Assembly (NCBI RefSeq): GCF_003966335.1
Contig: NZ_CP034549.1
Location: 1,320,001-1,352,000 of the forward strand
DNA length: 32,000 bases
From: Nonlabens ponticola
GTDB lineage: Bacteria; Bacteroidota; Bacteroidia; Flavobacteriales; Flavobacteriaceae
Reading direction: 5' to 3'
This document shows, piece after piece, positions 3,550 through 30,847 of the stretch (positions within the stretch are counted from its first letter, which is position 1; the number at the start of each line of letters is the position of its first letter). A program made the translations under genes and the position numbers. A model generated the notes under the pieces. It saw only the letters and a list, made by a program, of their open reading frames with translations. It did no database searches and was not told the DNA's origin.

Positions 3550-4590
3550 ATGTACAAATCACTTGTCAGGCCGCTGCTGTTCCGTTTTGATCCAGAAGGC
3601 GTACACCATTTCTCATTCAAGGCTATTAAATTATTGAGCAAGGTGCCTGGTTTTAGCACGCTTTCGCGAAAGCGTTACAAGCTCCAGCATCCTGCATTAA
3701 AAAGAAATCTATTTGGGTTAGAGTTTGAAAATCCTGTAGGTCTGGCCGCAGGTTTTGATAAGGATGCCAAAGCATTTGCAGAGTTCTCCAATCTAGGTTT
3801 TGGATTTGTAGAAATAGGCACGCTCACGCCTAAACCTCAAGAAGGAAATCCGAAACAAAGGCTTTTCAGGCTTAAGGATGATGCGGCGATCGTCAATCGC
3901 ATGGGCTTTAATAATGGCGGCGTTGACGCTGCAGTTGAGCGATTGAAAAATAATAAAGCCAGCGAGGACCGTGTACTGATAGGCGGCAATATAGGTAAGA
4001 ACAAAACGACACCTAATGAGCAAGCTGTCGAGGATTACATTATTTGTTTTAATAAGCTCTTTAACCATGTGGACTATTTCACGGTCAATGTAAGCTCGCC
4101 CAACACACCAGGATTACGCGAACTGCAAGACCGCAAACCATTGACACATATCTTGCAGACACTGCAAGATTTGAATAATGCACGACCACAGCGCAAACCA
4201 ATTTTACTCAAAATCGCACCAGACCTGACTGACGAGCAATTGCTGGACATCATAGGAATCGTAGAAGACACTCAAATTGACGGTGTTATAGCAACCAATA
4301 CGACTATCGAGCGCAAGGAGCTTAAAAGCGATATCACCCTGCAAAAAGAAGCAGGTGGTTTGAGCGGCGCACCACTTACAAATCGTGCGACACAGGTCAT
4401 CAAATTTCTATATGAAAAAAGCCATGGAGCTTTCCCAATCATCGGCGTTGGCGGAATCATGACCGCTCAAGATGCCATTGATAAAATAAAAGCTGGCGCC
4501 AGCCTCGTACAACTATACACTGGTTTTGTCTATGAAGGACCTGCTTTGGTAAGAGATATCAATAAAGAGATTCTAAGACAAGGCTTGTAG
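3550..4590 (+). CDS. pyrD: Dihydroorotate dehydrogenase (quinone), class 2
   Basis: The ORF track starts at TTG 3532. The ATG at 3550 gives [23 protein letters not shown], which matches the canonical PyrD N-terminus. [18 protein letters not shown] and GVGGI motifs are present. Confidence 0.93.
3658..3675. repeat. Iterated palindrome copy (PAL), perfect 18 bp ACGCTTTCGCGAAAGCGT, inside pyrD
   Basis: Read directly from the sequence. It is translated in frame as T-L-S-R-K-R. Confidence 0.9.
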
Positions 4591-4701: not shown

Positions 4702-5319
4702 ATGCTAGAAACCTACCTAACATTCTCTTTCACCGCATTCTTGCTAGCCCTATCGCCAGGTCCAGACAATATCTTCGTACTCACGCAGTCCATAGCAAGA
4801 GGTGCGAGATACGGCATCGCAGTTGCAAGCGGCTTGATTACAGGATGTATACTTCATACCTCGGTAGTAGCGCTTGGCTTTGCTGTAATTCTAAGAGATA
4901 ATGAATGGTTGCTGCTGCTTATCAAGATTTTTGGAGCCTTGTACCTGTTGTTCCTTGCCTACAAAGTCAATCAATCCAGCGACGAAATTAAGCTGGACGC
5001 TAGTGTGGTCAACAACAACTCATGGTGGAAGCTTTATCGCATAGGCATCACCATGAATCTGCTGAATACCAAAGTAACATTGTTCTTCCTGGCATTACTG
5101 CCTCAATTTGTAGTTCCCAACTCTACAGAAGAGTGGATCCAGATATACATTCTAGGCGGTATTTTCATGCTAGTGTCACTCGCAGTCTTCTACAGCATAG
5201 CTTTTTTAGGCGGCAGCGCTGCAAGGTTCATAAGATCTTCAAGATGGTTTGCACCAGTAATGAAGTGGTTGCAGATTGTAGTATTTGTAGGTATTGCGGT
5301 TGCGATTTTTATTTTGTGA
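4702..5319 (+). CDS. LysE/RhtB family amino-acid exporter
   Basis: 205 aa and multi-TM. The N-terminal FLLALSPGPDNIFV motif is typical of the LysE family. Confidence 0.85.
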   Translation: MLETYLTFSFTAFLLALSPGPDNIFVLTQSIARGARYGIAVASGLITGCILHTSVVALGFAVILRDNEWLLLLIKIFGALYLLFLAYKVNQSSDEIKLDASVVNNNSWWKLYRIGITMNLLNTKVTLFFLALLPQFVVPNSTEEWIQIYILGGIFMLVSLAVFYSIAFLGGSAARFIRSSRWFAPVMKWLQIVVFVGIAVAIFIL

Positions 5320-5337: not shown

Positions 5338-5949
5338 TTACATGACGAGGTTTCGATTATAATAATCGGCCTCAAATCTCACGAATTGAATATTAGAGTT
5401 TAGTACCTGAGTTAAATCTTTCCAGCTAAATGATTTTCCTCTGCGTTGAGTCATTGCATTGGTTAGAACGATTTTATAGTAATAATGAACAGCTATAAAC
5501 AAAGCGGATATGCTTTCTAAAACATTTTTGAGATTTGCTTCATAATAAAATTCATTTCTTTCGTACTTTACCTTATTATGAATCGTCCACCAATTTGGAG
5601 CTTTGCTTGAGGACCAACCTTCGTATGGTTTAATGGGATTCAAATTAGATCCGATAAAAACAGATTCTGTGAATAAATCTGGTAGTTTGATTATTAAATC
5701 TTTTTGGTACTTGTAAATATTATCTGCTTTAGAGCTGCTCGTCAATTTTTTACAAATGTGTTTTAGAATAACATCAATTTCAGCGCAGCTCGATAATAGC
5801 AATCTTGTAAATTCTATCGAATATGACGAGAAGTTATCTTCTGTAAAGTCTATATATCTGGAGGCAATCTTCAAATCATATTCCAAAGCACAGAAATAAT
5901 CCCAATACTTCATTGATAGATCTTCTTCTGTAAGATTTTGAATGACCAT
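5338..5949 (-). CDS. Hypothetical protein of unknown family, AT-rich; see findings
   Basis: A 203-aa ORF with an ATG start 22 nt downstream of the GH15 stop on the same strand. It appears mostly helical. I cannot assign a family with confidence. Confidence 0.6.
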   Translation of the reverse strand: MVIQNLTEEDLSMKYWDYFCALEYDLKIASRYIDFTEDNFSSYSIEFTRLLLSSCAEIDVILKHICKKLTSSSKADNIYKYQKDLIIKLPDLFTESVFIGSNLNPIKPYEGWSSSKAPNWWTIHNKVKYERNEFYYEANLKNVLESISALFIAVHYYYKIVLTNAMTQRRGKSFSWKDLTQVLNSNIQFVRFEADYYNRNLVM

Positions 5950-5970
5950 AAATCTATAATTTAATTTTTT

Positions 5971-7752
5971 TCATTTAGAGAGAGCGGAACTTTCATTAAA
6001 ATTAATCGCAGTCTCGATTAATGCCAGGTGAGAATAGGCCTGTGGGAAATTGCCCAGCAAACGCTTAGTCTTGAAATCAATATCCTCGCTAAACAAGCCC
6101 AAGTGGTTGCTATAGGAAAGGAGCTGATCAAAATAGGCTCTTGCTTTCTCTGTCTCACCAATCTTGTGCAGGCTGTCAATCAGCCAAAAAGTGCAAATTG
6201 TAAATGAACTGCTAGGCTCGCCAAAGTCGTCATTGTTCTTATAACGATACATCAATCCATCGTTGCACAGCTCACGCTCAGTAGCTTGAACGGTACTCAC
6301 AAATCGCGGATCGGTCGCCTCTATAAAACCGTACTGCTGCATTAACAACGTTGAAGCATCTAGGTCTGGTGAGCCGTAGGATTGTGTGTATGCCTGGACT
6401 TCATCATTCCAGCCGTTTTGATAGATATCATCATGGATGGTCTGCCTTAATTCTTGCCACTCTTGTAGATATCTACTTTTACCAATGATCTCGCTGATTT
6501 TGATCGCACGATCTATGGCCACCCAACACAATAGTTTTGAGAATACAAAATGCCTGTCCTCTGTACGCAGTTCCCAGATTCCTTTATCTGGTTTCTGCCA
6601 GTTTTTATTGACGATCGATGTGATGCTCTTTATTATAGTCCACAGTTCCTCGCTATTTTCCAGACTGGTCTCAAATTGGTCAAACTGCTGATAGATTACC
6701 TCCATCAGGATACCATAGATGTCATTTTGCTTCTGGATATAGGCAGCGTTTCCTATTCTTACTGGACTAGAATCTTTGTAACCAGAAAGGTGGTCAAGAA
6801 ATTCTTCAGTCAGGTCTTTCTCACCATTGATACCATACATGATCTGGATTTTCTCATCTTTTTCTGGAATCAAGTTGACGATAAATTGTAGGAACCTCTT
6901 AGCAGACTTGGTATGACCCAAACTCGTGATAACTCTAATAACCATAGATGCATCACGTATCCAGCAAAATCTATAATCCCAATTCCTTACTTCACCGATG
7001 GTTTCGGGCAAGCTAGTGGTGGCAGCGGCAAGCACGGCACCAGATTTCTCATAGGTCAGCGCTTTTAGGGTAAGTGCACTGCGTACGATTTCTTCATTGT
7101 AAAGCTGGTAGCTAGTCGTGCGCTCACTCCAGTTCATCCAGTAGGTTTTGGTGCGCTGGAATTTCAAATAACAGCGATCCAGTGTCTGGCTGGTTAGTTT
7201 TTCGTGGTACGACAACAACAGAAAAGCATTCTTTTCTAAGGTGATAATCTCCTGATTGAGTACCGCATCATAGTCCAAATCACTATACAAAAATGCCGAC
7301 TCGTACTCGCCATCCTGCGTATTGCTGTGTATGTATTCTCCTTTATTAGTAGAGTGCGTCTCAACCGCAGCATATTTCAATCTAGGATTATAAGAAATTT
7401 TGAATTGCGGCTTGCCTTTCAGCAGCCTTAAAAACCTCACGATATCTGGCGGTGAATAAAAAGTGCCGTCTTTTTGCTCGTATCTAGGCATGAAGTCAAT
7501 GACCTGAAAAGCGTCAGTGCCATTGTCAAAAGTCGTGCTCAGGATATTGGTTTGCCATAAATATTCCTGGTGCACTTGATAATCATCGTTCAACTTAAAC
7601 GAGAGGCTACCACCTTTCTCATCATCAAGGATTTTAGCAAAAACAGATGCGCTATCAAAAATGGGCAAGCAGCACCAGTCGATGGACGCATTTTTTGAAA
7701 TAAGTGCCGCACTTCTGCAATTACCTATGATACCGTAATCCAAATTCTCCAT
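5971..7752 (-). CDS. Glycoside hydrolase family 15 protein (glucoamylase/trehalase-like)
   Basis: 593 aa. The N-terminus is MENLDYGIIGNCRSAAL. NWDYRFCWIRDAS and the C-terminal GNFPQAYSHLALI are typical of bacterial GH15 enzymes. Confidence 0.9.
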   Translation of the reverse strand: MENLDYGIIGNCRSAALISKNASIDWCCLPIFDSASVFAKILDDEKGGSLSFKLNDDYQVHQEYLWQTNILSTTFDNGTDAFQVIDFMPRYEQKDGTFYSPPDIVRFLRLLKGKPQFKISYNPRLKYAAVETHSTNKGEYIHSNTQDGEYESAFLYSDLDYDAVLNQEIITLEKNAFLLLSYHEKLTSQTLDRCYLKFQRTKTYWMNWSERTTSYQLYNEEIVRSALTLKALTYEKSGAVLAAATTSLPETIGEVRNWDYRFCWIRDASMVIRVITSLGHTKSAKRFLQFIVNLIPEKDEKIQIMYGINGEKDLTEEFLDHLSGYKDSSPVRIGNAAYIQKQNDIYGILMEVIYQQFDQFETSLENSEELWTIIKSITSIVNKNWQKPDKGIWELRTEDRHFVFSKLLCWVAIDRAIKISEIIGKSRYLQEWQELRQTIHDDIYQNGWNDEVQAYTQSYGSPDLDASTLLMQQYGFIEATDPRFVSTVQATERELCNDGLMYRYKNNDDFGEPSSSFTICTFWLIDSLHKIGETEKARAYFDQLLSYSNHLGLFSEDIDFKTKRLLGNFPQAYSHLALIETAINFNESSALSK

Positions 7753-7847: not shown

Positions 7848-10055
7848 ATGAGCAAAACCATCATAGTTTCAAATCGATTGCCACTTCAATTATCTATTGA
7901 AAACGACCAGGTGAGTTCGCACCCCAGCGTTGGTGGACTGGCGACAGGTTTGAAATCGGTACACAGAGACAACAATGGCTTATGGATAGGTTGGACTGGA
8001 CTCACAAAGGAAGAGACGCCCGACCACCTCAAATCTGAAATACAGCAAGCAGTCACAAATCAACAGTGTGCTGCTGTGGAATTGACCCAGCGCGATATGG
8101 ATGGCTTTTACTATGGTTTTAGCAATCGTACTATTTGGCCGCTGTTCCATTATTTTATGGAATATGCAGAATTTGATGATGAAAATTGGGAAATCTATAA
8201 AAGCGTAAATCAGAAGTTTGCTCAGGTCGTGCTGGAAAATCTAGAAGATGGCGACACCGTTTGGGTACACGATTATCAATTGATGTTGCTGCCACAAATG
8301 ATCAAAGAGCAGCGACCCGACGTTTCCATTGGATTTTTCCTGCACATTCCGTTCCCATCCTACGAGGTTTTTAGGACCTTACCATGGCGTGAACAATTGC
8401 TCAATGGCCTGCTGGGTGCAGATTTGTTGGGCTTCCATACCTATGATTATGAGCGTCATTTCTTGAGTTCGGTAAGTAGGATTCTGGGGCATGAGGTAAG
8501 CTTCAATGAGATCACGTTCAAAGATCGTCTAATCAAGGTAGACAGCTTTCCCATGGGTATCGATTATGAGAAGTTTTCCGCTTCCGCGAAAGCGAACTAT
8601 CAACAAACTGATAAAACACAAAGCGAGCTACAACGTCGATTGGATCTTCATGCAACGGCCACGCCAGATGCCAAAATGATTCTTTCCATAGATCGTTTGG
8701 ATTACACAAAAGGGATCGCAAATAGGCTGCGTGCATTTGAACATTTTCTAGAGAAATATCCGCATTATTCTGAGAAAGTCAGACTAGTCATGCTAGCGGT
8801 ACCTAGCCGATCAAATGTGCCACAATATCAAGTGTTGAAGAAAGAAATTGACGAGTTGGTAGGACGCATCAATGGTAAATTTTCTACCGTGAGCTGGACG
8901 CCAGTCTGGTATTTCTATAGATCCATGCCTTTCGAGAATCTTATCGATCTCTATACATCATGCGATGTCGCGTTGATCACACCTATACGCGATGGAATGA
9001 ATCTGGTCGCCAAAGAATACGTCGCCACCAGAATCGACCGCACTGGCGTATTGATCCTGTCAGAAATGGCTGGTGCCGCCAAGGAAATGAACGAGGCACT
9101 ACTCATCAACCCAAACAACATTAATCTGATTGCGGATACCATCAAAGAAGCGCTAGAAATGCCCGTAGAAGAACAAAAGAAGCGTAATAAGTTCATGCAA
9201 AGCCGCTTGAAACGTTACAATGTGGAAAAATGGGCGAGTGATTTCATGGTCAAACTAGACGCAGTAAAAGGCAATCAAACCGTAGTCAAGGCAAAGCATA
9301 TCAATGAGAAAAGGCAAACGGTAATTCTCGAGCAATTTCAAAAAGCCAATAAGCGCATATTCTTCCTTGATTATGATGGCACATTGCGAGGTTTTGTCAA
9401 TAATCCAGGCGATGCAAAACCTGATGTAGCATTGCTGGAAATGATCAAAAAGCTGCAAGCACCTGACCAAAACGAAGTGGTGATTATTAGCGGTCGCGAC
9501 AGCGTGACGCTAGGCGAGTGGTTTCAGGACGTGCCTGTCACGCTAATTTCTGAGCATGGTGTGTTGAAAAAAACATACGGGCAGGATTGGGAACTTACCG
9601 AAACTATGAACAATGATTGGGTACCTACCATCCAGCCTGTATTGCAAACCTATGTAGACCGTACACCAGGAACTTTTATTGAAGAAAAAAACTACAGTAT
9701 TGCCTGGCATTACCGCAAAGCAGATCCACAATTAGGTGAGCAGCGAGCCAATGAGCTATCAAACGTGATACGGGAATTAACCAGCAATCATGGGTTGAGC
9801 GTGCTGTCTGGGAACAAGGTCATTGAGATCAAGAGTAGCAATGTCCACAAGGGTAAGGCAGCTAACAATCATATCCTGAACAAGAACTATAACTTTATAT
9901 TCTGCATAGGCGACGACTGGACAGACGAGTTCATGTTTCACGATCTACCAGAAACTGCCATCACAGTCAAGGTAGGACTTGCTAATACCGCAGCTCGCTA
10001 CTACGTTGATGATACAGATCAAGTCAGAGACATGTTGCAAATGTTTATTAAGTAA
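7848..10055 (+). CDS. otsA: Bifunctional trehalose-6-phosphate synthase (GT20) / trehalose-6-phosphate phosphatase (HAD) fusion
   Basis: 735 aa. The N-terminal IVSNRLP, HDYQLMLLP and GMNLVAKEY motifs are GT20 OtsA motifs. The C-terminal FFLDYDGTL and GDDWTDE are HAD OtsB motifs. Confidence 0.93.
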   Translation: MSKTIIVSNRLPLQLSIENDQVSSHPSVGGLATGLKSVHRDNNGLWIGWTGLTKEETPDHLKSEIQQAVTNQQCAAVELTQRDMDGFYYGFSNRTIWPLFHYFMEYAEFDDENWEIYKSVNQKFAQVVLENLEDGDTVWVHDYQLMLLPQMIKEQRPDVSIGFFLHIPFPSYEVFRTLPWREQLLNGLLGADLLGFHTYDYERHFLSSVSRILGHEVSFNEITFKDRLIKVDSFPMGIDYEKFSASAKANYQQTDKTQSELQRRLDLHATATPDAKMILSIDRLDYTKGIANRLRAFEHFLEKYPHYSEKVRLVMLAVPSRSNVPQYQVLKKEIDELVGRINGKFSTVSWTPVWYFYRSMPFENLIDLYTSCDVALITPIRDGMNLVAKEYVATRIDRTGVLILSEMAGAAKEMNEALLINPNNINLIADTIKEALEMPVEEQKKRNKFMQSRLKRYNVEKWASDFMVKLDAVKGNQTVVKAKHINEKRQTVILEQFQKANKRIFFLDYDGTLRGFVNNPGDAKPDVALLEMIKKLQAPDQNEVVIISGRDSVTLGEWFQDVPVTLISEHGVLKKTYGQDWELTETMNNDWVPTIQPVLQTYVDRTPGTFIEEKNYSIAWHYRKADPQLGEQRANELSNVIRELTSNHGLSVLSGNKVIEIKSSNVHKGKAANNHILNKNYNFIFCIGDDWTDEFMFHDLPETAITVKVGLANTAARYYVDDTDQVRDMLQMFIK
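8579..8594. repeat. PAL copy, CGCTTCCGCGAAAGCG (1 mismatch), inside the otsA-otsB fusion gene
   Basis: Read directly from the sequence. It is translated as A-S-A-K-A. Confidence 0.75.
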
Positions 10056-13670: not shown

Positions 13671-13692
13671 AAGCCATCCTGCGAGGGCTTGA
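13671..13692. repeat. Degenerate copy of hairpin family HP-B (AAGCCATCCTGCGAGGGCTTGA)
   Basis: It matches the 30055-30077 copy (AAGCCGTCCTGCGACGGCTTGA) except for two substitutions that break one stem pair. Confidence 0.5.
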
Positions 13693-13755
13693 ATAGATAA
13701 ACGAAAATGTTGCAAGCTGGCTGTTAACCAGTAACCGACAACTAATAACTACATT

Positions 13756-14718
13756 ATGAGCGAAGCAGAAATTAAAAGTCTAGAAGAGCAGTTTGATGCA
13801 AAAATTGCCCGTGATGAGAAAATTGAGCCGAAAGACTGGATGCCAGAGAAGTACCGCAAGACGCACATCAGGCAGATAAGTCAGCACGCGCATTCTGAAA
13901 TTGTAGGGATGCTGCCTGAAGGTAATTGGATCACACGCGCGCCATCGTTGCGTCGCAAAGTTGCTTTATTAGCAAAGGTTCAAGACGAGGCTGGACATGG
14001 CTTGTATCTGTACAGCGCCTGTGAAACATTGGGCATTACTCGTGAGCAGATGTATGAAGATTTGCATTCCGGAAAAGCAAAATATTCTTCCATTTTTAAT
14101 TATCCTACAGTCACTTGGGCAGATATGGGTGCGATAGGCTGGTTAGTCGATGGTGCTGCTATTATAAATCAAGTACCACTTTGCAGTACTTCATATGGGC
14201 CGTATGCAAGAGCCATGGTGCGTGTTTGTAAGGAAGAAAGCTTTCACCAGCGACAAGGTTATGAGATCATGCTATCCCTTTGTAATGGTACTGATGAGCA
14301 AAAAGAAATGGCACAAGACGCGCTTAATAGATGGTGGTGGCCATCACTCATGATGCTAGGCCCTACTGATGCGGCTAGTACACATACAGAGCAGTCCATG
14401 AAATGGAAGTTGAAGCGCAAGACCAACGATGAATTGCGCCAGCAGTTTATTGATCAAACCGTTCCTCAAGCTGATATTCTAGGGTTGACGATTCCTGATC
14501 CAGATTTGAAATGGAATGAAGAAACGGGACATTATGATTTTGGCGAGATTGATTGGGATGAATTCTGGCAAGTGGTCAAAGGTCATGGTCCTATGAACAA
14601 ATCAAGACTAGATGCGCGACGCGACGCTTGGGAAAACGGTGCATGGGTACGCGAGGCTGCCACGGCTTATGCAAACAAACAACGAGAGCGTAAAGAAGAA
14701 GCTGCGCAGGCTTCATAA
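13756..14718 (+). CDS. paaA: 1,2-phenylacetyl-CoA epoxidase catalytic subunit PaaA
   Basis: 320 aa with ferritin-like di-iron motifs (QDEAGHG ... EESFHQRQG). It sits in paa cluster context. Confidence 0.95.
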
Positions 14719-14727
14719 GTTTTACAT

Positions 14728-14757
14728 TCAAGCCGTCGTAGGACGGCTTCGCTTTTT
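14728..14757. repeat. HP-B hairpin repeat, terminator-like, between paaA and paaB
   Basis: TCAAGCCGTCGTAGGACGGCTTCGCTTTTT. The stem is AAGCCGTC/GACGGCTT with loop GTAG, followed by a T-run. Confidence 0.75.
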
Positions 14758-15109: not shown

Positions 15110-15463
15110 ATGGACGAAAAGAAATATGATCTTGAAGATCGATTGATCAAGTTCGCTGTAGAAATTATCAATTTATCTAGAAAGGCAGATTGGAATGACT
15201 ACGCTTCAAGGTATTATCAGCAACAGCTGATACGTTCCTCTGGATCTGTCGCTTTAAATTTTGGAGAATTTTTAGGTGCCAGTAGTCAAAAAGACAAACT
15301 CAATAAACTGAATATTGCTCACAAAGAGATTAAAGAATGTAGGAACAATATACTTATTCAAATTGGTGCAGAACTCAATATAGTGTCAGAACTCAAAATA
15401 CTATCGCGAGAATCACTTGAATTAATCAAAATACTGAGAGCTATTATAAAATCTAAATCTTAA
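15110..15463 (+). CDS. Four-helix-bundle protein (23S rRNA intervening-sequence protein / Avd-like family)
   Basis: 117 aa. YDLEDRLIKFAVEIINL ... QLIRSSGSVALNFGE ... HKEIKECRN fits the PF05635-type four-helix-bundle pattern. It is AT-rich: 16 G+C in the 60 nt at 15301-15360 by hand count. Confidence 0.85.
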   Translation: MDEKKYDLEDRLIKFAVEIINLSRKADWNDYASRYYQQQLIRSSGSVALNFGEFLGASSQKDKLNKLNIAHKEIKECRNNILIQIGAELNIVSELKILSRESLELIKILRAIIKSKS

Positions 15464-16846: not shown

Positions 16847-16914
16847 AAATTTTAAAAGTCATCAATTAAAATAATAACCTAAGTCGTTCTTTGGCGGCTT
16901 CTGAAACCAATAGA

Positions 16915-27088: not shown

Positions 27089-29632
27089 ATGAGCGTATTA
27101 GAGTCATATATTAATGGTCGCTGGACCGCCGGAAATGAAGACAGCGCAAAACCAATGTACGATGCCATCACGGGCGAGGTCATCGGACTTACAAGCACAA
27201 ATGACTTGGATATACCATCGGTTTTACAATACGGTCGCGATCACGGCAAGGTATTGCGCGATATGACGTTCCAGCAGCGTGGCAATATGATCAAGAAATT
27301 AGCTCTGTACCTTGAAAAACGCAAGAAGCAGTTTTATGAGGTAAGCTACAAGACCGGCGCCACTCGTGCCGACTCTTGGGTAGATATAGAAGGTGGTTTC
27401 GGAAATCTATTTGCCAACGCCAGCCTGCGCAAGCTCTTTCCAGACCAGAGCTACGCGGTAGAAGGCGATCCTATTGATTTGTCTCGTGGTGGTCGCTTTA
27501 TGGCGCATCACATTTTGGTACCCAAAAAAGGTGTTGCAGTACATATCAACGCTTTCAACTTCCCAGTTTGGGGTATGCTGGAAAAATGTGCCATTAACTG
27601 GATGGCAGGTATGCCAGCAGTGGTTTTGCCAGCGCCACAAACAGCATTCTTGACTGAGGCTGTAGCAAGAGAGATCATCAATTCTGGCATTTTGCCAGAA
27701 GGCGCTCTGCAATTACTCAGTGGTTTGACTACAAATATCCTGGATACCGTAAATTCTACTGATGTGGTCACATTTACTGGTAGCGCCGCAACAGGACGCA
27801 AGCTCAAGGCGCATCCACGATTGTTGGAAGAATCGGTGCCGTTTACTATGGAAGCAGATTCATTAAACTCTTCTGTGTTGGGACCAGATGCTGTTCCTGG
27901 CACGGCCGAGTTTGATATTTTTATCAAGGAAGTACGCAAAGAAATGACTTCTAAAGCTGGTCAAAAATGTACCGCCATACGCCGTATCATGGTGCCAGAA
28001 AACCTGATGGAAGATGTTCAAATTGCGTTAGGCAAGCAGCTATCTCAAACAGTCATTGGCGATCCATTATTGCGTGAGACGCGCATGGGCGCTTTGATCA
28101 ATAACGATCAGTGTGACACATTGAAAGAACAAATAAAGAAAATTTCAAAAACCGCCAAGATTGTTTACGGCGATCTCGATGAAGTTGAAATTCAGGGCGA
28201 TCGCGCGCAGAATGGCGCTTTCATGTCACCTATTTTGATGCGCGAGGACCAGCCGTTCAAGAACACGATGGTTCATGAGGTAGAATGTTTTGGCCCAGTC
28301 AGCACTTTGATGCCGTATAAGAATCTGGACGAGGCGATAGAGCTGGCTCATATGGGTAAAGGCTCGTTGGTGAGCAGCGTGGTTACTAGTGATGACGCTT
28401 TCGCGAAAGTGTACACCATAAACGCCGCATCTTCACACGGTAGAATTTTGACACTCAATAAAGAATCTGCACCACAATCCACGGGACATGGTTCACCATT
28501 ACCATTATTGGTTCATGGAGGTCCAGGACGCGCCGGTGGCGGCGAGGAAATGGGTGGTTTGCGTGGTATTAAGCATTACATGCAACGTTGTGCAGTTCAA
28601 GGAAGTCCAACATCACTGACCGAAATTACAGGGATTTATCAGCCAAATGGCGCTTATAAAGAAGCCGAAAAGCATCCGTTTGCATATCATTATGAGGACA
28701 TCAAACCCGGAATGTCGCTAGAAACTCATAAACGCACGCTGACAGATACCGATATCCAGAATTTTGCCAACCTCACATGGGATCATTTCTATGCGCATAC
28801 TGATATCACAAGTCTTGAAGGCAGTATTTTCAAAAAGCGCACCGCACACGGTTACTTTATCATCAGCGCTGCGGCTGGACTTTTTGTGTATCCTAACAAA
28901 GGACCAGTAAGTGCCAACTACGGTCTGGAAGACATCAGATTCCTAAGACCGTTGTACCACAACGATACCATCTATGTGCGTTTGACTTGTAAGGAAAAAC
29001 GTGAGCGCGACGTGAGTGGTCGCGAGCATCCATCGGGAATCGTCAAATGGTATGTAGAAGTATTTGATGCAGAGCCTGTAGATTATGAAAACGGCAAGAC
29101 AGATGAAGAAGCTGATTCTCTCGTTGCCATTGCTACGATTTTGACGATGGTAGAAAAGAAACAGGATACTTTCAAAGAAATTACTGAAGATTATATCAAG
29201 TTCGCTTTCGCGAAATTGAACGCTGATTCAAAACCTCAATGGGGTTCTATGACTGCACAACATATGGTCGAGCATCTTGAAATGAGTTACCGTATCGCCA
29301 GCGGCGAGATTCAGGATTTTGAGGTAGCAACACCAGAAGAACATCTGGAAAAAGTAGCCGCTACTTTATGGAACTATAAAAAAATGCCACAAAACCACAA
29401 GATGCCACTCATGAAACAGGACGGCACTTTGGAAGACTTGAAATACGAAGACCTGGAAACGGCTAAAGAGAAGATGCTCGAAGCGAGACAGCAATACTTA
29501 AATTATTTCAAGCGTCATCCTAAGATCGTGACTAAGAATGCTGTTTTTGGGGAATTGAGTAAGTATGAGTGGTATTTACTCGAGAGGAAGCACTTGAATC
29601 ACCACTTTGAGCAGTTCCAAATTTCCGCATAG
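27089..29632 (+). CDS. paaZ: PaaZ-type bifunctional aldehyde dehydrogenase / MaoC-like hydratase, with an extra C-terminal DinB/DUF1569-like domain
   Basis: 847 aa. It has an ALDH domain (EADSLN, GQKCTAIRR) and a MaoC hotdog domain (about residues 540-690). It then has about 156 further aa with PQWGSMTAQHMVEHLE ... FGELSKYEWYLLERKHLNHHFEQF, a DUF1569-like pattern. Confidence 0.9.
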   Translation: MSVLESYINGRWTAGNEDSAKPMYDAITGEVIGLTSTNDLDIPSVLQYGRDHGKVLRDMTFQQRGNMIKKLALYLEKRKKQFYEVSYKTGATRADSWVDIEGGFGNLFANASLRKLFPDQSYAVEGDPIDLSRGGRFMAHHILVPKKGVAVHINAFNFPVWGMLEKCAINWMAGMPAVVLPAPQTAFLTEAVAREIINSGILPEGALQLLSGLTTNILDTVNSTDVVTFTGSAATGRKLKAHPRLLEESVPFTMEADSLNSSVLGPDAVPGTAEFDIFIKEVRKEMTSKAGQKCTAIRRIMVPENLMEDVQIALGKQLSQTVIGDPLLRETRMGALINNDQCDTLKEQIKKISKTAKIVYGDLDEVEIQGDRAQNGAFMSPILMREDQPFKNTMVHEVECFGPVSTLMPYKNLDEAIELAHMGKGSLVSSVVTSDDAFAKVYTINAASSHGRILTLNKESAPQSTGHGSPLPLLVHGGPGRAGGGEEMGGLRGIKHYMQRCAVQGSPTSLTEITGIYQPNGAYKEAEKHPFAYHYEDIKPGMSLETHKRTLTDTDIQNFANLTWDHFYAHTDITSLEGSIFKKRTAHGYFIISAAAGLFVYPNKGPVSANYGLEDIRFLRPLYHNDTIYVRLTCKEKRERDVSGREHPSGIVKWYVEVFDAEPVDYENGKTDEEADSLVAIATILTMVEKKQDTFKEITEDYIKFAFAKLNADSKPQWGSMTAQHMVEHLEMSYRIASGEIQDFEVATPEEHLEKVAATLWNYKKMPQNHKMPLMKQDGTLEDLKYEDLETAKEKMLEARQQYLNYFKRHPKIVTKNAVFGELSKYEWYLLERKHLNHHFEQFQISA
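28395..28412. repeat. PAL copy, ACGCTTTCGCGAAAGTGT (1 mismatch), inside paaZ
   Basis: Read directly from the sequence. It is translated as A-F-A-K-V. Confidence 0.75.
29201..29220. repeat. PAL copy, TTCGCTTTCGCGAAATTGAA (2 mismatches to the 20-bp form), inside the paaZ C-terminal extension
   Basis: Read directly from the sequence. It is translated as F-A-F-A-K-L and lies 13 codons into the extra domain. Confidence 0.65.
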
Positions 29633-29652: not shown

Positions 29653-29678
29653 TGTCAAGCCGTCGCAGGACGGCTTCG
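29653..29678. repeat. HP-B hairpin repeat; left member of a 26-bp perfect inverted repeat flanking the GIY-YIG gene
   Basis: TGTCAAGCCGTCGCAGGACGGCTTCG is the exact reverse complement of 30054-30079. Confidence 0.9.
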
Positions 29679-29720
29679 CTTTAAATCTAACGCAATGACA
29701 GAATCAAACGACGATATGTA

Positions 29721-30044
29721 ATGAAAACAATGTACACTTACATAATGGCTCATATTAAGAACCGTTTATTCTATGTGGGCGTTACAAACAATATTAAGCA
29801 ACGAGTCTTTGACCATAAGCATGCGACCTTTGGGACACATACGGGTCATTACAATATCAAACAATTAGTTTGGTATGAGAAACATGACCAACCGTTGGAA
29901 GCGATCAGAAGAGAAAAGCAAATTAAAAAATGGAAACGAGAGTATAAAATCAATCTCATAGAGTCCATAAATCCTGAATGGATCGATCTTGCGGCAGATT
30001 GGGATTTTACTCGCTATTTGACAAGTAAGGAAAGATTTAAATAA
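29721..30044 (+). CDS. Small GIY-YIG nuclease family protein (YhbQ/UPF0213-like)
   Basis: 107 aa. YTYIMAHIKNRLFYVGVTNNIKQRVFDHK ... LVWYEKH ... AIRREKQIKKWKREYKINLIESINPEW is the classic small stand-alone GIY-YIG pattern. Confidence 0.9.
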   Translation: MKTMYTYIMAHIKNRLFYVGVTNNIKQRVFDHKHATFGTHTGHYNIKQLVWYEKHDQPLEAIRREKQIKKWKREYKINLIESINPEWIDLAADWDFTRYLTSKERFK

Positions 30045-30053
30045 ACTATAAAC

Positions 30054-30079
30054 CGAAGCCGTCCTGCGACGGCTTGACA
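30054..30079. repeat. HP-B hairpin repeat; right member of the 26-bp perfect inverted repeat
   Basis: CGAAGCCGTCCTGCGACGGCTTGACA is the exact reverse complement of 29653-29678. It overlaps the first candidate start codon of the next gene. Confidence 0.9.
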
Positions 30080-30847
30080 CATAAAACTAATATTTTGACT
30101 GCACCATACGTAAAAACAACTACAGAAAATCAAATACAAACCATAGAATTCTTCCATCCAGCGCACAACTCGCTGCCAGGAGATATTCTGGCGCAACTTG
30201 CACAAGCCATAACAGATGCTGGTAATGACGATGCCACCAAAGTCATCATCCTAAAATCTGGTGGCGAGCGCACCTTTTGTGCTGGAGCCAGTTTTAAGGA
30301 ATTGATTGCCATCGATGACGCTCAGACTGGTGAGAAATTTTTTATGGGATTTGCAAATGTGATCAACGCCATGCGCAAATGTCCAAAGTTCATAATCGGG
30401 CGTGTACAAGGAAAAACAGTTGGTGGTGGCGTTGGTGTCGCTAGTGCAACAGATTATTGTTTTGCAACCAAATTTGCCAGCATCAAATTGAGCGAACTCA
30501 ACATAGGTATTGGACCCTTTGTGGTTGGTCCAGCGGTAGAACGCAAACTAGGATTGAGTGGTATGAGCCAAATTGCGATCAACGCCAATGAATTTTACTC
30601 ACCAGAATGGGCGCAACAAAAAGGATTGTTTGCTGAAGTGTATGAATCTACCGAAGCCATGGATGAAGCAGTACAAAAGTTTGCAGAAAATCTATGCAAC
30701 TACAATCCAGAAGCCATGAAACACATGAAAGAAATGATGTGGTCTAATTGCAATCATTGGGATACTTTACTTGCGGAGCGAGCCAAGATTTCAGGAAAAT
30801 TGGTGTTGAGCGAGTTTACTAAAAAGACCTTGAAGAGATTTAAGTAG
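30074..30847 (+). CDS. Enoyl-CoA hydratase/isomerase (crotonase) family protein, possibly with a PaaF-like role
   Basis: 257 aa counted from TTG 30074. There is no ATG near the N-terminus, and an alternative TTG at 30095 gives (M)TAPYVKT. The FCAGASFKE and GGGVGVASATDY crotonase motifs are present. Confidence 0.85.
   Translation: MTHKTNILTAPYVKTTTENQIQTIEFFHPAHNSLPGDILAQLAQAITDAGNDDATKVIILKSGGERTFCAGASFKELIAIDDAQTGEKFFMGFANVINAMRKCPKFIIGRVQGKTVGGGVGVASATDYCFATKFASIKLSELNIGIGPFVVGPAVERKLGLSGMSQIAINANEFYSPEWAQQKGLFAEVYESTEAMDEAVQKFAENLCNYNPEAMKHMKEMMWSNCNHWDTLLAERAKISGKLVLSEFTKKTLKRFK

Follow-up and report, generated by a model that had tools for sequence, protein, structure and literature searches.

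A putative Ssn-family GIY-YIG nuclease gene between inverted TGTC-tagged hairpins in the phenylacetate operon of Nonlabens ponticola

The closest described relatives of the locus reported here, a small nuclease gene between two inverted hairpins in the flavobacterium Nonlabens ponticola, come from two lines of work. Di Nocera et al. (2013, BMC Genomics; PMC3733652) described the CGTC-tagged superfamily of repetitive extragenic palindromes (REPs), in which the CGTC-1 group includes dRS3 of Neisseria and RPE-6 of Rickettsia and is defined by an unpaired CGTC or TGTC tag, a stem of 8 to 9 bp whose positions 1 and 2 are A-T pairs, a loop of 4 to 5 nucleotides (nt), and a 3-nt tail (consensus CCA). 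As of 2013, these repeats were without a dedicated enzyme (PMC3733652). Chenal et al. (2025, Nat Commun; PMC11893778) defined the Ssn family, GIY-YIG proteins of about 94 amino acids (aa) that were assigned to CDD cd10448. Ssn proteins bind the NTS/SRM hairpin solely as single-stranded DNA, and solely on one strand, and cleave a few nucleotides upstream of it; the 3 nt upstream of the palindrome are required for cutting, and the C directly after the palindrome is required for binding (PMC11893778). The residues mutated in SsnA were Y6, Y17, and E64, ssn genes are typically flanked by hairpin inverted repeats of 20 to 50 nt, and the role of Ssn in Neisseria is restriction of incoming single-stranded DNA (PMC11893778). 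An initial annotation of the N. ponticola locus had stated that no mechanism was known for such small GIY-YIG genes; that statement is outdated, as binding and cutting of the flanking single-stranded hairpin have been shown (PMC11893778).

We analyzed a window of 32,000 nt from N. ponticola (contig NZ_CP034549.1, positions 1,320,001 to 1,352,000), within which all coordinates below are counted unless another locus is named. Probably, the gene at 29721 to 30044 (plus strand) encodes an Ssn-family nuclease that is site specific on single-stranded DNA, and the two arms around it are its cognate TGTC-tagged REP recognition hairpins, of the CGTC/NTS/SRM type, the whole forming a resident module. 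The evidence on which this reading is based consists of homology, catalytic residues, hairpin anatomy, geometry, synteny, and co-variation.

The inverted repeat pair covers 29653 to 29683 and 30049 to 30079, two arms of 31 nt each that are 97% complementary (30 of 31 positions) and lie 365 nt apart. Its perfect core measures 26 nt (29653 to 29678 and 30054 to 30079), the whole arm-gene-arm span measures 427 bp, and the 107-aa GIY-YIG gene is the sole open reading frame (ORF) inside. The perfect core, the span, and the enclosed gene had been claimed in the initial annotation and are confirmed by the coordinates and by shuffling: the 26-mer has three matches in the window when up to three mismatches are allowed and none in 100 dinucleotide-preserving shuffles. 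Beyond the core, the similarity continues with one mismatch, as was also claimed, for five further bases rather than four. The left arm, which begins 20 nt downstream of the paaZ stop codon, carries the motif on the top strand, with a TGTC tag (29653 to 29656), stem AAGCCGTC (29657 to 29664), loop GCAG, stem GACGGCTT (29669 to 29676), and tail CGCT. The right arm carries it on the bottom strand, its top strand reading CG-AAGCCGTC-CTGC-GACGGCTT-GACA, and ends 15 nt ahead of the TTG start of the crotonase gene (30095). Folded as single strands of DNA, both arms give a stem of 8 bp and a loop of 4 nt (-8.9 kcal/mol, z about -3). The loops (GCAG in the left arm, CTGC in the right) and the flanks (TGTC... 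and ...GACA, respectively) are oriented, and the arms are therefore true inverted copies, as first proposed, and more than two look-alike palindromes.

Set against the CGTC-1 definition, both arms have the TGTC form of the tag and, in AAGCCGTC/GACGGCTT with loop GCAG, a stem and loop of the defined kind; solo copies of the hairpin carry [ACT]GTC or TTC. The tails of arms and copies read CGC or CGG, versus the CGTC-1 consensus CCA. The window arm (tag TGTCA, stem AGCCGTC, loop GCAG, stem GACGGCT, tail TCGCT) can also be aligned position for position with the canonical NTS/SRM (tag TGTCA, stem TTCCCGC, loop GAAA, stem GCGGGAA, tail TCCAG), and it has GTC 5' of the palindrome and C directly 3' of it. 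A scan of the whole window against Rfam found no family reaching its gathering score. The single right arm of the window (30044 to 30100) looks as if it arose by deletion between directly repeated right-hand hairpins of an ancestor resembling Nonlabens marinus, in which case the inner copy supplied the flank ACTA.AAACCG and the outer one GACACATAAAACT; N. marinus itself has two hairpins on either side of its frameshifted gene (L206, 3478 to 3532 and 3913 to 3981).

The 107-aa protein consists of a GIY-YIG domain (Pfam PF01541, E value 4.9e-14, residues 4 to 76) with no further Pfam domain and is, by sequence comparison, an SsnA homologue, Ssn-type rather than YhbQ-type. Its relationship to SsnA was found by a tblastn search of PLSDB, a collection of plasmids, with the window protein as query; there, the Neisseria records are two Neisseria gonorrhoeae chromosomes of about 2.17 Mb (NZ_CP119142.1 and NZ_CP119140.1) filed as plasmids; this filing made the ssnA comparison possible. 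There is one match per chromosome (43% identity, E value 9e-16). In BLASTP, the N. gonorrhoeae ORF and the window protein share 43% identity over 88 aa (E value 2e-25), and the ORF matches profile A1, made from the homologues of the window protein, with an E value of 3e-37. Seven exact NTS repeats and additional dRS3 copies surround this ORF, which we therefore take to be the gonococcal ssnA orthologue. Residues Y7, Y18, and E65 of the window protein align with Y6, Y17, and E64 of Neisseria meningitidis SsnA; across the 35 homologues of alignment A1, Y18 and E65 are invariant and Y7 is nearly so. The label of YhbQ-like that the gene was first given has to be replaced. Similarity to UPF0213 is distant, with an E value of 0.31 in a single-sequence search (phmmer, to EF2693) and of 1e-6 to 4e-5 in profile searches (EF2693 and BH0048, the latter at 1e-6). 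Solved structures in the PDB gave distant UPF0213, UvrC, and SLX1 matches alone and no Ssn structure. The nuclease has no match in NCBIfam, PADLOC, or PHROGs, and an exact-sequence look-up returned no record identical to the window protein, P0007, or P0136.

Gene and hairpins go together well beyond N. ponticola. A metagenome scan recovered 80 loci with homologues at 41 to 61% identity, and, with the other loci, 84 have 60 nt or more of sequence on either side of the gene. Upstream and downstream sequences form an inverted repeat with a score of at least 18 in 33 of these 84 loci, nearly all of them tagged hairpins and mostly of the canonical NTS-like form TGTCATTCCCGCG..GCGGGAATCCAG; we give this as counts rather than as a p-value because the cross-locus null is inflated, many loci sharing the same NTS. 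The window geometry (left hairpin on the plus strand, right hairpin on the minus strand, tags outward) occurs in 27 of 81 loci, and the reverse geometry in 2 of 81. Every orthologue of the window gene is flanked by an inverted tagged-hairpin pair, as are most distant homologues, which bears out the early proposal that gene and hairpins form a unit. The initial annotation had also suggested testing whether GIY-YIG paralogues sit between inverted pairs of this same hairpin. Inverted pairs are present around the paralogues in Flavobacteriaceae loci, but each paralogue has its own matching hairpins, which differ from the window's (stems include TTTCCGCA, ATTCCTGC, and CATCCGC).

The locus lies in a phenylacetate-catabolism operon, with PaaZ at 27089 to 29632, the crotonase from 30095, PaaA at 13756 to 14718, and a PaaE-like reductase. 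An automatic ORF call puts the crotonase start at TTG 30074, where the gene would overlap the right arm; 250-aa database homologues place the start at TTG 30095. The lineage of the window gene occupies the paaZ-crotonase junction in all 12 of the distinct loci recovered, in several genera (53 to 87% identity in one count, with metagenomic loci from 49%). Orthologues between paaZ and the crotonase gene were found in Nonlabens dokdonensis (L001, 79% identity), in L004 (86 to 87%), in L213 to L215 (77%), in Croceibacter (53%), and in the metagenomic loci L126 to L130 (49 to 60%). PaaZ identities across these loci (65 to 92%) run parallel to those of the nuclease, and this parallel divergence points to vertical inheritance with the operon. 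The hairpins change along with the genes: tag and tail are conserved across the junction loci, whereas the stems vary (AAGCCGTC, AAGCCGCT, GAGCCGTC, AATGCGCC, A[AC]TGCGCA, AATCCGCA, and AAAGCGCA), and the two arms have an identical or closely similar stem in most genomes. Compensatory double changes are seen in five of seven stem pairs. The T and C of the tag and the C and G of the tail are invariant across the arms, and the G of the tag is kept in 16 of 17.

Not every genome retains an intact copy. In N. marinus, where the site has four hairpins, the gene carries a frameshift, and in an uncultured Nonlabens (L091) it is truncated. At the same site, Nonlabens antarcticus (L207) carries an Ssn gene of another lineage (38% identity) with another hairpin pair (CATCCGC stem), and Nonlabens ulvanivorans (L208) has a decayed copy of the N. 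antarcticus-type lineage; the PaaZ and crotonase proteins of these two species are 85 to 91% identical to the window's. Empty sites in relatives, which the initial annotation had suggested looking for, exist as spacers of 76 to 77 bp in Aureisphaera and Cochleicola (L211 and L212), the latter with a single NTS-like hairpin adjoining the crotonase start. These are other genera rather than strains, and the presence/absence polymorphism at the orthologous site is seen between genera or species. Compared across these genomes, the module is a long-resident nuclease and target-site pair with slow turnover, not a recently transposed element.

Two accounts would make the cassette more mobile than this. 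The first, which is speculative and which we regard as doubtful, holds that the hairpin-ssn-hairpin cassette is the missing dedicated mobilizing unit of CGTC-tagged REPs, with single-strand cuts at tagged hairpins causing solo hairpins to spread and whole cassettes to be exchanged at REP-marked intergenic slots. The replacement in N. antarcticus, where both arms changed in concert at the same junction, would be an example of such exchange. If true, this would amount to a counterpart of the REP-associated tyrosine transposase (RAYT) systems built on an entirely different enzyme chemistry.

The second account, put forward in the initial annotation and in our view improbable, takes the 427-bp arm-gene-arm unit for an active autonomous mobile element, either insertion sequence (IS)-like or homing, and the solo hairpins for derivatives resembling miniature inverted-repeat transposable elements or for insertion targets. 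Several facts are consistent with it: the empty sites in Aureisphaera and Cochleicola, the change of Ssn lineage and hairpin pair in N. antarcticus and N. ulvanivorans despite similar PaaZ and crotonase (89 to 91% identity in one count), the three such genes in successive operon slots of Croceibacter, the frameshifted or truncated genes of N. marinus, L091, and N. ulvanivorans, and a G+C content of 35.5% in the nuclease gene versus 43 to 45% in its neighbors. The authors of the Ssn study themselves call the layout identical to an IS, while also raising a RAYT-like domestication (PMC11893778). Yet the unit lacks the marks of transposition. The 15 nt outside the arms (ACAAATTTCTTTGAT and CATAAAACTAATATT) show no direct repeat and hence no target-site duplication; the sole ORF is the GIY-YIG nuclease, and no transposase (DDE, HUH, serine, or tyrosine recombinase) is present within the unit; no second copy of the nuclease gene occurs within the window; and PHROGs and PADLOC gave no matches. 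Every recovered member of the lineage sits at the paaZ-crotonase junction, with divergence tracking that of its neighbors. GIY-YIG enzymes are, to our knowledge, hydrolytic nucleases with no known strand-transfer activity, which also counts against an autonomous element. The proposal of an autonomous or homing element thus finds neither transposase chemistry nor target-site duplication and runs against strict synteny. Slow replacement of cassettes at intergenic slots marked by REPs may nonetheless take place.

The hairpin also occurs as solo copies, as first claimed. One lies between paaA and the next gene (14726 to 14752, plus strand) and has a TTC tag, a perfect stem, the loop GTAG, and a CGCT tail followed by a T-run; its core spans 14730 to 14749, and the earlier start at 14728 is to be corrected accordingly. 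A decayed copy upstream of paaA (13671 to 13694, core 13671 to 13690, minus strand), likewise reported before and likewise real, has two stem mismatches and a TTC tag (-4.0 kcal/mol). A three-mismatch match at 16881 was rejected as a further copy, as it is not a hairpin (z -0.5). The window, with about 29 genes, holds four GC-rich perfect hairpins with a stem of at least 7 bp, of which three are the AAGCCGTC/GACGGCTT hairpin; with three copies among four such hairpins, it is therefore not a generic terminator. Nor does it follow most genes, a pattern that the initial annotation had named as speaking against a specific association. A scan of a genome collection with AAGCCGTCNNNNGACGGCTTC listed matches that are mostly chance or terminator-like, with random flanks and in unrelated phyla. 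Among the matches listed, every Nonlabens/Flavobacteriaceae copy shares the oriented consensus GTC-AAGCCGTC-G[C/T/A]AG-GACGGCTT-CGCT, and tagged solo copies occur in at least four other Nonlabens/Flavobacteriaceae genomes, all of them intergenic and in both orientations relative to the neighboring genes. Apart from L091, the fetched pieces around solo copies (3.6 to 8 kb) contain no GIY-YIG gene near them. The presence of the motif in both orientations relative to transcription suggests recognition at the level of DNA rather than RNA. One further idea, an RNase III-type duplex formed by the two arms with the ORF looped out, was set aside, given strand-specific tags in both orientations relative to transcription. 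On a 3.6-kb contig of a Flavobacteriaceae metagenome-assembled genome (L031), eight tagged, GC-rich hairpins from three or more stem families form a cluster resembling a bacterial interspersed mosaic element; the contig has no Ssn gene.

That the hairpins are ordinary intrinsic terminators or mRNA-stabilizing stem-loops, locally duplicated, with the nuclease gene as an unrelated passenger, is very improbable. In its favor, a T-run follows the copy at 14730, which has a terminator-like score, CGCTTT follows the left arms, and passages of PMC3733652 and PMC3479197 describe REPs as affecting mRNA stability. Against it, only three such hairpins occur among the roughly 29 window genes, the same strand-specific tag, loop, and tail appear whichever way the motif points relative to transcription, Ssn paralogues each have a matching pair of their own, and the pairing of gene and hairpin is seen across phyla (also in PMC11893778).

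We return to the reading of the locus as a resident Ssn module, against which several observations weigh. The published SRM pattern, HGTCWYN(0-2)YYVSBRHN(0-5)WNVSBRGN(0-2)RNCYNB, has no match in the window, L001, or L004. The same pattern does match the canonical NTS, with which the window arms have in common the HGTCW tag, the stem and loop lengths, and the post-stem C; it misses the window arms because the stem letters differ, and we treat the window arm, as judged from this comparison, as a new specificity variant of the NTS/SRM motif class and not as an absence of that class. The characterized enzymes come from Neisseria and Wolbachia, none from Bacteroidota, and the window member is known from sequence alone. 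The N. gonorrhoeae ORF was named ssnA by context rather than by accession and has no obvious ATG, and the NTS tags nearest to it face the gene, opposite to the window geometry. The evidence for dispersal consists of the window copies and the matches listed, rather than a genome-wide count. The arms used for the co-variation count were collected by a hairpin finder, and this way of collecting them accounts in part for the high percentage of paired cells.

Should the analogy with the Neisseria and Wolbachia enzymes hold, the N. ponticola protein would bind the hairpin solely in single-stranded DNA, on the strand reading 5'-GTC-stem-loop-stem-C, and would then cut a few nucleotides 5' of it. The cleavage-proximal tags face outward (left on the top strand, right on the bottom strand), so that exposure of either strand would present one site at the 5' edge of the module; replication, conjugation, or transformation could provide such exposure. 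Protein and arms co-evolve on this reading, the stems shifting by lineage while paired arms stay alike and tag and tail are kept. Solo copies elsewhere would be further targets of the nuclease. Cleavage of single strands at the window hairpin and any cellular role are predicted from the same analogy; the protein could control single-stranded DNA that enters the cell or recombines, or the module could be a RAYT-like system that has been domesticated and maintains its own repeats.

Related genes and other small elements occur in nearby slots of these operons. Croceibacter atlanticus (L209/L210) has three Ssn-type GIY-YIG genes in successive slots of one operon, after paaZ (3608 to 3946), after the crotonase gene (4792 to 5112), and after a hexapeptide-repeat gene (5760 to 6083), all co-oriented with the operon and each with its own hairpin pair. 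The E2 and E1 genes of a 2-oxoacid dehydrogenase flank a second conserved slot, where N. dokdonensis (L001, 10144 to 10461) and N. ulvanivorans (L208, 8630 to the end) carry an Ssn paralogue and N. marinus (L206, 7321 to 7340) has a solo hairpin alone, with an AAGCCGC stem in a 41-bp spacer. Small PF05635 genes ("23S rRNA intervening sequence protein", a four-helix bundle) are found in variable intergenic slots of the same operon across species (window 15110 to 15463, with 32.5% G+C; L001 7223 to 7600; L207 4948 to 5220; L208 4791 to 5171; L213 6314 to 6529) and form a second class of small accessory genes, whose presence between the operon genes varies. Within the window there are also 11 copies of the 14-bp perfect palindrome GCTTTCGCGAAAGC, versus 0.19 expected from shuffles, usually extended to C-GCTTTCGCGAAAGC-G. 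Copies at 3660, 13619, 17479, 20352, 22653, and 25217 are perfect, and those at 8580, 10615, 16832, 28397, and 29204 have one or two mismatches. With six copies inside ORFs and five between genes, the palindrome is neither a REP nor a terminator; it may be an overrepresented word resembling an uptake, Chi, or binding site.

These comparisons place a Flavobacteriaceae gene in a recently defined family and provide a new candidate enzyme-site pair, TGTC-AAGCCGTC-GNAG-GACGGCTT-CGCT. The published SRM pattern misses this site, and surveys therefore probably undercount such pairs in Bacteroidota. Every new enzyme-site pair may also serve as a tool that cuts single-stranded DNA at a specific sequence. 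The paaZ-crotonase junction itself is a compact natural experiment, with intact genes, pseudogenes, an empty site, lineage replacement, and arms that co-vary with the protein, and this series could help to decide between two views of Ssn/REP modules, as residents that have been domesticated or as selfish cassettes that move slowly.

Among known systems, YhbQ/UPF0213 proteins share with the window protein the format of a small stand-alone GIY-YIG protein, but the similarity is merely distant and no NCBIfam model matched. GIY-YIG homing endonucleases such as I-TevI and the T4 Seg proteins have the same catalytic domain, in small genes between host genes; they differ in having their own separate DNA-binding domain, in cutting the double-stranded DNA of the gene-less allele, and in being without flanking hairpin pairs. 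Elements of the IS200/IS605 group have subterminal hairpins that are recognized in single-stranded DNA, as is predicted for the window hairpins, whereas their hairpins are not mutual inverted copies, the chemistry of TnpA differs, and the window locus has no sign of peel-and-paste transposition. The likeness to RAYTs and their REPINs (inverted GTAG-tagged REPs) goes further: a single-copy, mostly vertical nuclease gene lies between inverted cognate hairpins, the hairpin is recognized as single-stranded DNA (in the window, by prediction), solo or dimer copies occur apart from the gene, and several enzyme-repeat pairs per genome are possible. The enzymes are nevertheless of different kinds, a hydrolytic GIY-YIG nuclease in the window versus an HUH/Y1 transposase with a covalent intermediate, and Pfam finds the GIY-YIG domain alone, with no HUH/Y1 tyrosine transposase. 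The tags differ as well ((C/T)GTC versus GTAG), and any propagation of repeats by the window enzyme is hypothetical.

The CGTC-1 REPs are closer. They share with the window hairpins an unpaired CGTC or TGTC tag, an 8-bp stem whose first two pairs are A-T, a loop of 4 nt, and a short tail that is likewise unpaired, and they are intergenic and also reported from Bacteroidetes (PMC3733652); the window hairpins differ in the tail, CGC instead of CCA, and in having an evident associated gene, as in PMC11893778. Closest of all is Ssn/SRM. Both are built from a single-domain GIY-YIG protein of about 100 aa, in our case an SsnA homologue, with conserved catalytic Y, Y, and E, whose gene is bracketed by inverted hairpins with a GTC tag, an 8-bp palindrome, a 4-nt loop, and a post-stem C; solo copies are found in our case at two further places in the window. 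They differ in stem (AAGCCGTC in the window versus ATTCCCGC) and tail (CGCT versus CYRG/CCA), in host (Flavobacteriaceae in our case, with no Bacteroidota member named in the text of PMC11893778), and in setting, the window gene lying inside a phenylacetate operon at a junction conserved across genera. The kind of system is thus already described, its repeats in 2013 (PMC3733652) and its enzyme in 2025 (PMC11893778), and the N. ponticola window adds to it a member with a divergent recognition hairpin.

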